Shown here in pieces: positions 5,707 through 13,231 of a DNA stretch of 13,264 nt (its first letter is position 1; every line of letters starts with the position of its first letter). The DNA lies in IMG/VR virus record IMGVR_UViG_2802429244_000009; one strand, written 5' to 3'. Under the pieces are notes generated by a model. That model searched no databases. It saw only the letters and a program-made list of their open reading frames with translations, and was not told the origin of the DNA. The stretch comes from a virus (Duplodnaviria; Heunggongvirae; Uroviricota; Caudoviricetes). The translations under genes and the position numbers were made by a program.

Positions 5707-7941
5707 GTGGCCAACCAAACCATAAAACGTTTTGGACTGGAAAATATGATACTCGATAAATCAGTGACGCACCCAGATCAGGATCGATATGGATTTCTTC
5801 ATATTGCTAGACAACTTGCAAGTGCCATTCATGCAATTGGACGAGAAGGTAGAGCTGTCATTGGCATTGAAGGTGCATGGGGCTCAGGAAAAACTAGCCT
5901 ATTGAATTTGCTACGTTCGGAGCTAGAAAAAGAGAAAAATGAACGAACTTATATTCTAAATATTTCCCCTTGGCTTGATGGTGATGGTATCAGCTCTGTG
6001 GAAACTTTGTTGCTACCTGTGGCGAGAGTCATTGCAGATGAGGAAGAAAAGTCATTACCGCCGAGGCAACGCAAGCGCCTCAATAAGAAAAACGAACTAA
6101 CTGAATCGGCGAAATCAATCCTGCGTTACTCACAGGTTACAGCACGGCATTTGGTTCCAATGGCGGAATTTGCTGCTCTTATTCCCGGAGTTCCCAATGC
6201 CGGTAAAGCTCTTAAGTCCTTTTCAGAGCTAAACTTAAAGGAAATCAGGAAGACCACCGCGGAATTACGTACTGAAATAGCAGAGAAGATTGCAGATCTT
6301 GATCTCAGTTTTATAGTGCTACTTGATGATCTGGATCGTCTTGAGCCAGCTCAGGCTGTCGAGATCATTCGACTAGTAAAATCGGTCGCAGATTTTCCTC
6401 GTTTCCGCTATATCTTATGTTATGACAGGGGCGTTCTGGCCCAAGCAATTAAAACCGGATTAGGAGTAGAAGATGGAAATGCTTACCTGCAGAAAATAGT
6501 GCAAATATCGTTCAGCCTTCCTCTTCCGGAATCATTTGATCTACGATTACAGTTTTTTGATGGTGCGGTCGCTCTTTACGAATCTGTTAACGGTTTTTCT
6601 CCTGACGAGGAAATATTGACGGACCTGAATACAATTACAGATACCTTTGGTGTCGCGCTTAAGACCCCACGAGAAGTGCAACTGTCTTTGAATGCCCTTG
6701 CTTTCAGGTATCCAGGCGTGAGAGATTACGTTTATCTGCCAGATCTATGCTTTCTTCAACTTATTCAAGTTACCTGCAGTAGTTTATATGAATGGATAGA
6801 ACAGTACCTGACTGAGTATGCAGTGGTAGCATCAGGCGATGGCACAGTCAGTGAGGCGCAACAACAACAAATTAGGGAGCATTTCGTTACTGCTATTTCA
6901 AAGTTACACCCTTTTTCTGACCTTATGATATACGAACTTAGTAAGATTATACCTGGTATTGAAGGGTATAAAGAAGATACGCTGAAACTTTTTCGTCAGA
7001 GCAGTGAAGAAGAGCAGGTCTTCATGGGGGCACAACGAAGACTTGGTAGTAGTGCCTACTGGCGTTACTACTTTGCATTTTCTGCTCCGCAATATGTTTT
7101 GCCGCCGGAGTTTTTTACCAATCTGTTTAACTTAGCCAGAACATTCGATAAAGAAACTGATCTTGCAATTGAGTTGCTCAGCAGAATCAATAGTAAAGGG
7201 CTTACATCACGAACATGGTATGAACATATCCTTAGTCAACTTAGCTCCCGTATGATCAAAGAACGTCATTTTGATGAATGTGCAGGGTTGTTAAAATTTT
7301 TTTTCAATTACGCTGATGGTGTTTGGGATTTCTACTATGAACGGAACCAGTGGTTCTCTTGGCAAACACTAGGTACGGAAGAGGTTGTAAACAATCTGCT
7401 CCGTCGACTACTGGAGTTGGATAGGCCCAGAGGAATGCGTTTGCTAAAACAACTGTTCACTCAGGGAAGCGCCTGGAACTGGGCTGCCGTATATCTGCGG
7501 GGATTGCTGTTGCAGAATGGTATGGCTGGAAGTCAAGCAGTTGCCATGTATAAGCGGATTTTGAAAAATACTGAGGTGGCCTCACTGTGTAAGCTTATGT
7601 CACGTCGCTTGAGAATGCGGCACATTCAAAATGAAATGTTTCGGTTCAACAATCTTCTACATTATGTTTATGCTTGGCGTGACATAGATTCACCAAAAAT
7701 TGTTTGTCGATGTCTACGGCGAATCTGTAAGGAAGATGATGGTTTTTTGAACCTGCTACTGCGTTTACGGAGAGTGGTATTTAGTAGCCACCGTGGGGCA
7801 TATCGAGAACTACGAATAAATCAAGTTTCATTTCTTATTGGACTCCCAAAAGATACTATTGTCTCGCGGCTGGAAAGCCTTGCTCAACAACGTAACAGAG
7901 ACTGGATGGTCGATGAATTACGGAATTCGTTTGAGCAGTAG
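5707..7941 (+). CDS. KAP-family P-loop NTPase (744 aa), candidate prophage-encoded defence / exclusion protein
   Basis: Walker A GAWGSGKTS near residue 57 and Walker B-like FIVLLDDLDRLEP near residue 200, the G-x-W-G-x-G-K-[ST] and hhhhDDLDR pattern typical of KAP NTPases. AAGGAG RBS before the GTG start. Gene is visibly AT-richer than its neighbours. C-terminal ~500 aa unassigned. Confidence 0.75.
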   Translation: MANQTIKRFGLENMILDKSVTHPDQDRYGFLHIARQLASAIHAIGREGRAVIGIEGAWGSGKTSLLNLLRSELEKEKNERTYILNISPWLDGDGISSVETLLLPVARVIADEEEKSLPPRQRKRLNKKNELTESAKSILRYSQVTARHLVPMAEFAALIPGVPNAGKALKSFSELNLKEIRKTTAELRTEIAEKIADLDLSFIVLLDDLDRLEPAQAVEIIRLVKSVADFPRFRYILCYDRGVLAQAIKTGLGVEDGNAYLQKIVQISFSLPLPESFDLRLQFFDGAVALYESVNGFSPDEEILTDLNTITDTFGVALKTPREVQLSLNALAFRYPGVRDYVYLPDLCFLQLIQVTCSSLYEWIEQYLTEYAVVASGDGTVSEAQQQQIREHFVTAISKLHPFSDLMIYELSKIIPGIEGYKEDTLKLFRQSSEEEQVFMGAQRRLGSSAYWRYYFAFSAPQYVLPPEFFTNLFNLARTFDKETDLAIELLSRINSKGLTSRTWYEHILSQLSSRMIKERHFDECAGLLKFFFNYADGVWDFYYERNQWFSWQTLGTEEVVNNLLRRLLELDRPRGMRLLKQLFTQGSAWNWAAVYLRGLLLQNGMAGSQAVAMYKRILKNTEVASLCKLMSRRLRMRHIQNEMFRFNNLLHYVYAWRDIDSPKIVCRCLRRICKEDDGFLNLLLRLRRVVFSSHRGAYRELRINQVSFLIGLPKDTIVSRLESLAQQRNRDWMVDELRNSFEQ

Positions 7942-8279
7942 TCGAAACATTAAAAATTGGTCATGGGGCTTTAATATTGAAAACGAGGGTGTTTCCGATA
8001 GTTTTTTAGCTACTACGCCGCGTTTGGCAGAGAGGGTTAAATAAGAGAGTTGCCTCCATTGGTTGAACTCACAGCTCAAAGTTGATTGTTAGCTTTGATT
8101 GTGTATTGCCTACACAAGTATTAGCCGGATCTGACTTAGCACATTTAATTAAGTGCTGGTGGTGGTATCTGACCATGTTTCACAGAAAAATCAAATTATA
8201 CCCAGTAGTAATATTGAGACACTGTAGAGACAGCCACATATTGAATCATGCACGTGTACGTCAAATGTGGGAGGTTGTC

Positions 8280-8369
8280 GTGCTGGTTCTCAAATGTGCG
8301 CTGGCTATTGCGGCTGTAATGGCAATTTATTGTCTTGCTATTGTTCTTATGGTTCGCCTTTCTGATTGA
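8280..8369 (+). CDS. Candidate small hydrophobic membrane peptide (29 aa; MLVLKCALAIAAVMAIYCLAIVLMVRLSD)
   Basis: GTG at 8280 preceded by GGGAGG (8269-8274) at 5-nt spacing. Product is a single predicted transmembrane helix with a charged C-terminal tail. It is the C-terminal part of track ORF 8082..8369, whose own start is a weak TTG. Confidence 0.3.
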   Translation: MLVLKCALAIAAVMAIYCLAIVLMVRLSD

Positions 8370-8580
8370 TTTCATATTGGCGAGGTAACGGGAGTTAAGT
8401 AGAATGGCTGCGGGTGCTTGAGGCTATCTGTCTCAGGCATGAACACCAACGGCAGATAGAGAAAAGCCCCAGTTAACATTACGCGTCCTGCAAGACGCTT
8501 AACATTAATCTGAGGCCATATCTATGACTTGCACACGTAGGTTAGCCTCTTACGTGCCGAAAGGCAAGGAGAAGCAGGCT

Positions 8581-8736
8581 ATGAAGCAGCAAAAGGCGAT
8601 GTTAATCGCCCTGATCGTCATCTGTTTAACCGTCATAGTGACGGCACTGGTAACGAGGAAAGACCTCTGCGAGGTACGAATCCGAACCGGCCAGACGGAG
8701 GTCGCTGTCTTCACAGCTTACGAACCTGAGGAGTAA
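8581..8736 (+). CDS. hokD: Hok-family type I toxin, HokD (RelF)-like (51 aa)
   Basis: MKQQKAMLIALIVICLTVIVTALVTRKDLCEVRIRTGQTEVAVFTAYEPEE matches recalled HokD/Gef-family sequences. AGGAGAA RBS upstream; a structured GC-rich 3' region follows the stop. Confidence 0.85.
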   Translation: MKQQKAMLIALIVICLTVIVTALVTRKDLCEVRIRTGQTEVAVFTAYEPEE

Positions 8737-8964
8737 GAGACCCGGCGGGGGAGAAATCCCTCGCCACCCCTGATGTGTCAGGCATCCTCAACGCACCCAC
8801 ACTTAACCTTACTAGCAAGTGGCTTTAATATTATTGTAACATTTTCATGCTCGCATGTGTTTTCTGTTGTTATGAATTAGGTACAGGGTTCTTATGCTTC
8901 TTTATTGCGATGAGCTTGCAACTGATTGTTAGTTGCTATTGGTGGGGGAAGGGATATACTTTAA

Positions 8965-9213
8965 ATGAGCAAAAAAGAGAAGTTGAGGTGGCGTCTGAAT
9001 CAGCTTCCAAAGGATTTTACATGGGATGAACTCGTGACGTTGCTTGGGCATTATGGTTTCGAAATGCTTACCGGTTCAGGCTCAAGAAGGAAGTTTACCA
9101 ATGCTAATGGAAGGCTTGTGGCTTTTCATTGCCCACATCCTGGCAATATTGTTAAAGGATATGTGCTTAAAGAAGTGAAAAATCTTTTGGATGAGATTGA
9201 TAGTTATGAGTAA
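8965..9213 (+). CDS. hicA: HicA-family toxin (82 aa)
   Basis: Motif ...LLGHYGFEMLTGSGSRRKF....GRLVAFHCPHPGNIVKGYVLKEVKNLL fits the HicA (YcfA-like) pattern G.GS..KF...G....HxPHPG. It is immediately upstream of, and overlapping, a HicB-like gene. Confidence 0.7.
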   Translation: MSKKEKLRWRLNQLPKDFTWDELVTLLGHYGFEMLTGSGSRRKFTNANGRLVAFHCPHPGNIVKGYVLKEVKNLLDEIDSYE

Positions 9214-9682
9214 TGTGCTGAGTTATAAAGGTTATTTTGGCAGCATTGAGGTTTCACTTGAAGATAACATACTTCATGGGAAAATTCAGTGCGTAAACGA
9301 TGTTGTAACCTACGAAGCGGAAACACTGGATGGGTTAAGGGCGGCTTTTGAAGAAGCTGTTACAGATTATCTCGACACATGCAAGCAGTTAGGGAAATCT
9401 CCTGATAAACCAATGAGTGGTACTTTTAACATCAGAATTGGTCGCGATCTTCATAAGAAAGCGTTTTTGGCTGCAATGGCGGATAAGACGACGCTTAATG
9501 ATTATGTGCGTAAAGCTATCGAAGAAAAGATTGCTGACAAAAAAGAAGTTCATTCTCATTCGGAAAGCGAAGAAACGACAGATACATTCGTTTGGGAAAA
9601 AGCATTCTCTTTTGGTTATGTCATTTCCCCTTCAGCAAGAACAAAAAAGAAAGAGGCTGGTGAGCGATGGATGCGTCACTGA
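9206..9682 (+). CDS. hicB: HicB-family antitoxin (158 aa) with C-terminal extension
   Basis: YKGYFGSIEVSLEDNILHGKIQ...DVVTYEAETLDGLRAAFEEAVTDYLDTCKQLGKSPDKPMSGTFNIRIGRDLHKKA matches the HicB-like antitoxin pattern (YKGY.GS...DYL..C...G..P.KP.SG.FN.RI...LH.KA). ATG at 9206 overlaps the hicA stop at 9211-9213. Confidence 0.8.
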   Translation: MSNVLSYKGYFGSIEVSLEDNILHGKIQCVNDVVTYEAETLDGLRAAFEEAVTDYLDTCKQLGKSPDKPMSGTFNIRIGRDLHKKAFLAAMADKTTLNDYVRKAIEEKIADKKEVHSHSESEETTDTFVWEKAFSFGYVISPSARTKKKEAGERWMRH

Positions 9683-13077: not shown

Positions 13078-13153
<76 letters not shown>

Positions 13154-13156
13154 TAT

Positions 13157-13231
<75 letters not shown>

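Follow-up and report, generated by a model that had tools for sequence, protein, structure and literature searches.

A hokD-like toxin gene that is not accompanied by relBE and is preceded by a second short open reading frame (ORF), encoding a 29-aa hydrophobic peptide, raises the question of whether such a region represents a functional hok/sok-type locus or a tandem of two small membrane-active peptides. Both possibilities had been put forward in an earlier note on the DNA studied here, a 13,264-nt stretch (referred to as the window) of the Caudoviricetes record IMGVR_UViG_2802429244_000009 from the IMG/VR database. The element is a lambdoid prophage, and the region in question consists of two adjacent units on its early-right arm. 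The first is a putative hok/mok/sok type I toxin–antitoxin (TA) unit (8377 to ~8810), and the second, lying upstream of it (8214–8369), a candidate separate small gene with its own predicted sigma-70-type promoter, a strong Shine–Dalgarno (SD) sequence and a product with one transmembrane helix. Our analysis indicates that the locus is very probably a complete hokD/hokW-type hok/mok/sok system plus a separate membrane-peptide gene of an optional, accessory kind. The coordinates given below are those of the window and refer to the (+) strand unless stated otherwise.

The hok gene, its mRNA leader and the Sok antisense RNA

The toxin gene, with its ATG at 8581 (not 8582), extends over 8581–8736 and encodes a protein of 51 aa (MKQQKAMLIALIVICLTVIVTALVTRKDLCEVRIRTGQTEVAVFTAYEPEE). 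Its membership in the Hok family was confirmed by the match of the 70-aa frame that contains it to Pfam PF01848, HOK_GEF (81.6 bits with a cut-off of 22, E 2.9e-23, profile positions 1–42 of 42), and the 51-aa protein is identical, letter for letter, to the catalogued HokD (HOKD_ECOLI). As read from the sequence, lysines at positions 2 and 5 are followed by a hydrophobic stretch (residues 6–24) and a cysteine (C30), the layout of the family, in which basic residues precede an N-terminal transmembrane helix and the C-terminal, periplasmic part has a conserved Cys. This allele is the commonest one among the ORF matches gathered from phage loci (156 of 283). The mok-like frame of 70 codons suspected to start at ATG 8524 is indeed open in the ORF list (8524–8736). 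It is in frame with hok, shares its stop codon, is collinear with the annotated mokW of phage 933W and matches PHROG 251, 'MokW-like host killing', with E 7.7e-33. No insertion sequence (IS) element, frameshift or internal stop interrupts the hok locus.

Upstream of these frames, the consensus scan predicted a hok/mok promoter (8377–8405; −35 TTGGCG, 17-nt spacer, −10 TAGAAT), which is conserved in all relatives aligned. Transcription would start at ~8412, 7 nt past the −10 motif, and this is also the first position of the Rfam leader model. The model RF01794 ('sok') was matched on the (+) strand over its full length (positions 1–157 of 157; 109.5 bits against a gathering score of 59, E 1.1e-24) and reaches across the leader of the hok mRNA as far as the hok AUG; included in this leader (8412–8586) are the 5′ tac element, the Sok target and the region where mok translation starts. 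The tac element, GGGUGCUUGAGG (8412–8423), forms the 5′ end of the predicted mRNA, and a fold-back inhibition (fbi) element, CCUCAACGCACCC (8786–8798), is predicted to pair with that 5′ end. The structure prediction suggested in the earlier note for the hok leader and 3′ end bore this out: when 8412–8812 was folded, 8412–8423 paired with 8786–8798 in both the minimum free energy (MFE) and the centroid structures, with a stability of −157.4 kcal/mol (z −7.84) that none of 100 shuffled sequences reached. Copies from E. coli, 933W and K-12 all retain the fbi element.

The search of the minus strand for a sok-like promoter and terminator was also positive. A predicted promoter, read from the sequence, is located at 8539–8567 on the (−) strand (−35 TTGCCT, 8567–8562; 17-nt spacer; −10 TAACCT, 8544–8539), and this stretch is identical to that of 933W/Sp5. 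In the hokW-sokW study (PMC8621323), the mutagenic primer YO-421 replaces GGTTAG, the complement of TAACCT, in a construct that the authors call promoter-less. The predicted Sok RNA of ~71 nt (8462–8532, (−) strand, running from ~8532 to 8462) was placed by alignment, its coordinates being transferred from the annotated sokW misc_RNA of AF125520. The 75-nt fold of this region (8532–8458) has −29.8 kcal/mol (z −5.36) and consists of nine unpaired 5′ nucleotides, a long hairpin and a U-rich tail, GGGGCUUUUCUCU; the single-stranded 5′ tail shows complementarity to the start region of mok. A cis-encoded Sok with its own promoter, 5′ tail and terminator hairpin is therefore predicted in silico.

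Since the Rfam leader, the HOK_GEF match, the register of promoter and start, the tac/fbi closure, the Sok fold and the identity with 933W all agree, the hok/sok unit appears to be complete. As far as sequence can tell, every element that defines a hok/sok-type locus, the first of the two possibilities raised in the earlier note, is present and intact.

Comparison with known hok systems

The nearest characterized relative of the window's unit is hokW-sokW of the Stx2 phage 933W and the Sakai prophage Sp5 (AF125520), a lambdoid-prophage locus of the same type with 93% DNA identity to the window over 8392–8813. The leader core, the sok promoter and the Sok hairpin are identical in the two loci, and both have a 51-aa Hok with an in-frame 70-codon mok. 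They differ in the Sok 5′ tail/mok start region, the specificity determinant (ccatatctatgacttgc in the window versus ctcaatccatgctgaac in hokW-sokW), in the C-terminus of Hok (FTAYEPEE versus FVDYESEK in HokW) and in the −35 region of the hok promoter, which is of a different type. In 933W, hokW has neither of the upstream peptide genes (families A and A′) described below, and its downstream neighbors are unlike those in the window. The hokW-sokW locus is an experimentally proven type I TA system, in which HokW arrests growth (Takada et al. 2021, PMC8621323). The effect that marks a Hok toxin, membrane depolarization or killing when it is expressed, has been shown for HokW (PMC8621323). A mutation of the sokW promoter unmasks the toxicity; mitomycin C removes sokW, whereupon HokW accumulates in the inner membrane in a RecA-dependent manner; and hokW-sokW raises the release of Sp5 ~2-fold, deletion of the locus halving it (PMC8621323). 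By analogy, we infer that the copy in the window is expressed and regulated like hokW-sokW.

The hokD gene (relF) of the Qin prophage of E. coli K-12, the last gene of the relB-relE-hokD operon, encodes an identical Hok protein and shares with the window the ORF DNA (100%), the 3′ untranslated region (UTR) and fbi, as well as its place in a lambdoid prophage with respect to DUF968 (ydfU) and Q. Its homology with the window begins only at the hok SD (~8567). The K-12 gene is devoid of the promoter, tac, leader, mok start and sok promoter and has relBE in their place, whereas the window keeps all of them and contains no relBE at all. The earlier note was right on both counts, the K-12 background, with hokD behind relBE and no functional sok, and the absence of relBE here: the upstream neighbors are the small ORF and a PifA-type NTPase gene, and with the full 5′ region retained the arrangement is not that of the relBE-hokD operon.

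The hok/sok (parB) system of plasmid R1 has the same architecture, with mok overlapping hok, an antisense Sok of ~65–70 nt directed against the mok start, the tac/fbi closure and the same Rfam leader model. It is plasmid-borne, unlike the window's unit, and its Hok is only distantly similar to the one found here (for HokW and R1 Hok, 44% identity was reported; PMC8621323). Post-segregational killing and T4 exclusion were shown for R1. The link between hok-type loci and phage exclusion made in the earlier note has been demonstrated only for R1 hok/sok carried by a high-copy plasmid; for the close relative hokW-sokW, the role shown is in phage release.

The small peptide gene upstream of hok

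The 29-aa ORF (8280–8369; GTG at 8280, TGA at 8367–8369) encodes a membrane peptide with a single helix, (M)LVLKCALAIAAVMAIYCLAIVLMVRLSD, which belongs to a peptide family of Escherichia/Shigella prophages and which we assigned to its subfamily A (family A). As described in the earlier note, it lies behind a GGGAGG motif, here placed at 8269–8274, 5 nt before the GTG; GGAGG or GGAGA is found in all relatives. The consensus scan (9/12 matches) predicted a promoter-like site at 8214–8242 (−35 TTGAGA, 8214–8219; 17-nt spacer; −10 CATATT, 8237–8242). The peptide stop codon is separated from the hok ATG by 212 nt.

The SD, the GTG start and the TGA stop are conserved in a five-way alignment and in an alignment of 38 sequences anchored on the neighboring hok promoter. 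Among these 38 unique relatives, the −10 motif CATATT of the peptide promoter is invariant and the TTGA of its −35 nearly so, whereas the sequence upstream of the promoter falls into at least five unrelated contexts; the homology of the peptide gene hence begins at its promoter, with the −35 motif. The ORF is undisrupted in the 54 phage loci that carry it (24 of 24 unique nucleotide versions). In these 24 variants, the variable sites are distributed over the three codon positions as 10/8/17, and the ratio of nonsynonymous to synonymous polymorphism (pN/pS) is 0.37 in frame as opposed to 0.65–0.71 in the other frames.

The idea that the peptide might be merely the tail of a longer gene was not upheld. 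Of 35 unique relatives, 34 have an in-frame stop 5–40 codons before the GTG, mostly without any start codon between the two, and this stop closes the frame of the mechanical 95-aa ORF beginning with TTG at 8082, an extension specific to the window. The left border of 8082 assigned to the locus in the earlier note corresponds only to that TTG. Another possible start in the same frame, ATG 8265, aligns with that of family A′ (see below), has no SD and is missing from most family A variants. Altogether, the 29-aa ORF looks like a real and separate gene. Lysine 5 before the helix and the acidic tail (D-R-L-S-D) that follows it in most relatives suggest that the N terminus of the peptide faces the cytoplasm.

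One further sequence relation was noted. A 13-nt stretch upstream of the peptide promoter, TTAAGTGCTGGTG (8149–8161), shows 85% complementarity to CACCCACACTTAA (8794–8806), at the very 3′ end of the hok mRNA region. Members of the E. coli group have kept the upstream motif, AAGTGCTGGTGGTG.

Distribution of the peptide families and their linkage to hok

The 168-nt segment with the family A ORF is present in 1955 of 5426 complete E. coli genomes. Among the 40 RefSeq records listed, no annotated feature lies under the family A match, while some GenBank submitters label the variants "membrane protein" or "hypothetical protein" (e.g., in REL606 and BL21). A megablast comparison showed that E. coli prophages share the window sequence from ~8130/8173 to 8808; as this stretch spans both genes, the peptide ORF travels with hokD. 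In a pattern scan of one genome per species, family A was encountered only in E. albertii, E. ruysiae and Shigella flexneri, and additionally in three contigs of metagenome-assembled genomes.

A second subfamily, A′ (MSDDISLAMEGALAVIAVVGVYCLVVFLMDRLGN; 34 aa, compared with 29–30 aa in A), corresponds to RefSeq WP_001278450.1, "hypothetical protein", and occurs in 669 of the 5426 complete E. coli genomes, mostly of Shiga toxin-producing E. coli (STEC). Like A, it carries the motif YCL..(V/F)LMDRL and is positioned directly 5′ of hokD in the prophages of E. coli O157:H7 and other STEC strains. It differs from A in its five extra N-terminal residues (MSDDI), its ATG start and its own SD; moreover, it closely follows a DUF551 gene, with no A-type promoter aligning upstream, and it is annotated by the Prokaryotic Genome Annotation Pipeline (PGAP), whereas family A is not. 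The similarity to the window peptide (tblastn E 1.7e-6, 48% identity over 29 aa) extends in frame, with synonymous differences at the conserved Y, C, L, L, R and L codons. Identity between A and A′ by codon position is 0.61/0.82/0.54 and the ratio of nonsynonymous to synonymous substitutions (dN/dS) is 0.43. Within A′ the variable sites are distributed as 3/2/9, which gives 13/10/26 for the pooled subfamilies (chi-square p ~0.01). A search of the literature with the peptide strings and the RefSeq accession found no publication on A or A′, and the text of a Ribo-seq preprint on small proteins of CFT073 contains nothing that bears on them.

The A and A′ loci are collinear. Between the A′ stop and the hok −35 there is a 34-nt insert with a perfect 22-bp palindrome, CGATATGGGAATTCCCATATCG, seen at L048:1890-2200 ((−) strand), at ~90 other IMG/VR loci and at L485:1507-1860, and not in the window. 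As no U-tract adjoins it on either strand, the palindrome does not qualify as a standard terminator and might instead bind a protein or form a hairpin at an RNA 3′ end. The usual gene order across the loci is DUF977 - DUF551 - A/A′ - hokD, and in O157:H7 it reads DUF977 - DUF551 - A′ - hokD - x - DUF968.

Linkage was counted in IMG/VR scans anchored inside each ORF. A hok gene was found at a fixed distance downstream in 89 of 96 (A) and 92 of 96 (A′) phage loci. In the reverse direction, in 50 of 104 loci anchored on the A-type hok promoter the peptide ORF is interrupted where unrelated upstream DNA joins it, at no fewer than five different points. Taking into account that hokW-sokW has no such ORF, hok works without the peptide, while the peptide is rarely found without hok. 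This asymmetry could reflect a functional dependence.

Other candidates for a similar linkage were rejected. A small hydrophobic ORF in front of hok had seemed to be a general, convergent pattern, as several unrelated families appeared to show it; only the mutually homologous A and A′ proved to be hok-linked. Family B, a 27-aa 'ORF' with the sequence MTWPEA(L/F)TTVGIAMAVALVVYSICRWG that often precedes hok (loci L008, L019, L046 and others in IMG/VR; L485:807-1391), is catalogued as the transmembrane tail at the C-terminus of DUF551 proteins, which have 121–185 aa. Its frame continues into the preceding sequence in both of the upstream variants translated, and 35 of 105 such loci have no hok downstream.

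Alternative explanations and points of doubt

Under one alternative, the peptide would be a type I toxin in its own right, independent of Hok and paired with a dedicated RNA antitoxin, and the locus a double type I TA cassette. A small, hydrophobic single-helix product, a strong SD and the position next to a TA locus speak for it, and the size of the peptide and the helix with a short polar tail resemble toxins of the Fst/Ldr type. Against this, no promoter-like site was detected on the minus strand of 8200–8620 even at a relaxed threshold, in a scan that also misses the sok promoter and would thus let weak promoters escape; 7942–8411 gave no Rfam family match even at E 10; and the peptide matched no family, of toxins or otherwise, in Pfam, NCBIfam and PHROGs. 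The mRNAs of type I toxins are typically highly structured, whereas the predicted peptide mRNA (8249–8411), with a 5′ UTR of only ~30 nt, is no more structured than its shuffled versions (z −0.44). The exposed strong SD and the reasonable promoter would also predict steady expression, a poor fit with a lethal product. We therefore consider such a double cassette quite improbable; the peptide is probably not a second antisense-controlled toxin. As far as sequence can tell, the tandem of small membrane peptides envisaged in the earlier note holds in that a conserved stand-alone peptide gene precedes hok; nothing found suggests that the peptide is itself a type I toxin. The opposite view, that the small ORF is untranslated and 8214–8369 is conserved as DNA or RNA, for instance for an upstream role in regulating hok, as read-through sequence that lengthens the hok mRNA at its 5′ end or to anchor recombination where a cargo hotspot ends, also seems improbable. 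It would explain why the segment appears as conserved as the hok promoter (nucleotide diversity 0.063 versus 0.066, although the hok-side figures of the family A comparison are unreliable, the indels being unaligned, and were not used), why the junctions with unrelated upstream cargo cluster at or within it, and why, when A and A′ were compared, pN/pS in one of the out-of-frame controls came close to that in frame. In addition, no terminator separates the peptide ORF from hok, which makes read-through likely, and in the fold of such a read-through RNA (8249–8812, (+) strand; z −4.26) the peptide SD/start region pairs with the mRNA 3′ end and the tac–fbi closure is not formed. The 3′ bases involved are, however, specific to the window and not conserved in the E. 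coli loci, so this fold may be an artefact. Translation of the ORF is favored by the excess of variable third positions in both subfamilies, by the invariant SD, start and stop, by the ORF length kept in 24 + 13 unique variants, and by the fact that A and A′ can be aligned only through the ORF, in frame and with many synonymous codon differences, their UTRs being unrelated.

For the hok unit itself, the question is whether it could be an inactive relic, intact in appearance and unexpressed or unregulated, like most chromosomal copies in K-12. Many chromosomal hok loci are inactivated (reviewed in PMC8309996), the sok −10 motif is weak, and the usual terminator after fbi is gone, with hicAB following directly. 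Nevertheless, we find this very improbable: all hok/mok/sok elements are present and uninterrupted, the Hok allele is the most frequent one, in its sok promoter region the locus is identical to the functional hokW-sokW, and the hokD-hicAB junction is kept at 96–97% identity in several E. coli genomes.

Several observations nonetheless weigh against a complete hok/mok/sok locus with a separate, selected peptide gene. All promoters, transcript ends and RNA structures of the window are predictions. The sok −10 motif TAACCT departs from the consensus, and the sok promoter stays below the threshold of the generic consensus scan. In most hokD loci of E. coli a hairpin terminator, ACCCGCTTCGGCGGGTTTTT, follows directly 3′ of fbi; this hairpin is not present in the window, where the homology to the E. 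coli loci stops at ~8808, and no intrinsic terminator was predicted in 8737–8965, i.e., before hicA, which makes the 3′ end of the hok mRNA, and hence its 3′ processing, uncertain. Since the hokD-hicAB junction recurs in E. coli and the functional hokW is also devoid of the hairpin after fbi, we read the missing terminator as a doubt about the mRNA 3′ end and not as a sign of decay. As to the peptide, the signals of selection are only moderate, and the dN/dS between A and A′ is weak when taken alone because one out-of-frame control gave a similar value. The window copy has valine at position 25 (GTT, 8352–8354), where nearly all relatives, and every other intact copy of family A that was compared, carry D, E or N (mostly GAT), so the usual acidic residue right after the helix is lost. 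The ORF is dispensable at many hok loci, and its linkage with hok could equally be a matter of hitch-hiking over 40 nt, where the hok module borders on its 5′ side on a cargo hotspot.

Other relations between the peptide region and hok were checked and rejected. The peptide is not recognizable as a truncated Hok paralogue: HHalign of A/A′ against a Hok profile that includes six classical Hok sequences scored 11.2, within the range of column-shuffled and reversed controls (mean 9.4, maximum 15.3). No RF01794 match appeared in 7942–8411, even at E 10, that would mark the upstream region as a degenerate second hok leader. Finally, the start regions of the peptide gene and mok, compared by eye, have no similarity that would let Sok act in trans on the peptide mRNA.

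Proposed mode of action and significance

In the complete hok/mok/sok locus that we favor, the events can be outlined by analogy with the R1 paradigm and hokW-sokW. A stable hok mRNA starting at ~8412 would be kept translationally inert by the pairing of its 5′ tac element with fbi near the 3′ end, and the translation of Hok would be coupled to that of the overlapping mok frame. The short, unstable Sok (8532 to 8462) would pair with the mok start region, blocking it and marking the duplex for RNase III. When Sok synthesis stops, be it through prophage induction, shut-off of transcription or loss of the element, the 3′-processed hok mRNA would refold and be translated. The 51-aa Hok would then insert into the inner membrane and collapse the membrane potential, leading to cell death or, as in hokW-sokW, aiding lysis and phage release.

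As to the peptide, our best guess is a small protein of the inner membrane that has its own promoter and accompanies the hok module as an optional accessory. It is not needed for the TA function, as hokW-sokW has no upstream ORF and the ORF is truncated at about half of the hok loci counted above. A closer relationship, in which the A/A′ peptide and Hok constitute a two-peptide membrane module and the constitutively made peptide interacts with Hok and tunes its action, seems rather unlikely. In such a module, the peptide might buffer leaky Hok in the lysogen or time Hok-assisted lysis at induction, much as an antiholin does with a holin. The asymmetric linkage and the conserved Tyr-Cys motif in the helix fit this idea; neither of them demonstrates it.

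The hok/sok part of the locus is textbook material, known in kind and nearly in sequence, and it shows the complete ancestor form of the truncated hokD of K-12. The useful outcome is a conserved, uncharacterized and largely unannotated gene for a peptide of 29–34 aa located 5′ of hokD-type loci, found in about a third (A) and a further eighth (A′) of complete E. coli genomes. Should the peptide modulate Hok, it would bear on how prophage type I toxins stay harmless in lysogens and are deployed at induction, and a functional coupling, if shown, would make this a hok locus with a protein partner. If it does not modulate Hok, it would still be one more translated small membrane protein missing from the standard annotation.

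Neighboring genes and the cargo setting

The gene order of the early-right arm is cI/cro - YdaT - O-like - DUF977 - PifA - [peptide A - hok/sok] - hicAB - ... - DUF968 - RusA - Q. The gene directly upstream of the peptide–hok region (5707–7941) codes for a KAP/PifA-type NTPase of 744 aa, a full-length PifA homologue (PADLOC PifA, 932.9 bits, E 3.6e-281). PifA is the T7-exclusion protein of the F plasmid. In the megablast search of complete E. coli RefSeq genomes, the PifA part of the query had no match, and the combination PifA-peptide-hok-hicAB was found in none of the complete E. coli genomes or phage contigs examined. Downstream, the hicA (82 aa)/hicB (163 aa) type II TA pair (8965–9682) starts 229 nt after hok. 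Between the replication genes and DUF968-RusA-Q, PifA, hok/sok and hicAB thus make up a compact cluster of defence and TA genes, and the peptide–hok locus marks the right-hand border of a lambdoid-prophage cargo hotspot, occupied by PifA here and by HEPN or restriction-endonuclease genes in relatives.

The spacer between hok and hicA is covered by a 60-aa hydrophobic, Cys-rich ORF (MLACVFCCYELGTGFLCFFIAMSLQLIVSCYWW..., 8847–9029, (+) strand), which overlaps the hicA start in a different frame and has no NCBIfam match. Direct repeats ~840–854 nt apart were noticed around the peptide–hok module, at 7962–7978/8816–8832 (CATGGGGCTTTAATATT / CAAGTGGCTTTAATATT) and 8083–8101/8923–8941 (TGATTGTTAGCTTTGATTG / TGATTGTTAGTTGCTATTG), the intervening sequence having no further similarity. 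They could be scars of insertion or recombination; the matches are only 17 and 19 nt long, with no extended similarity, and are probably due to chance. Just 3′ of the Q antiterminator gene there are two tRNA genes, tRNA-Thr(TGT) and tRNA-Gly(TCC) (13078–13231, (+) strand); E. coli strain 127 carries the same Thr-Gly pair farther downstream of its hokD.

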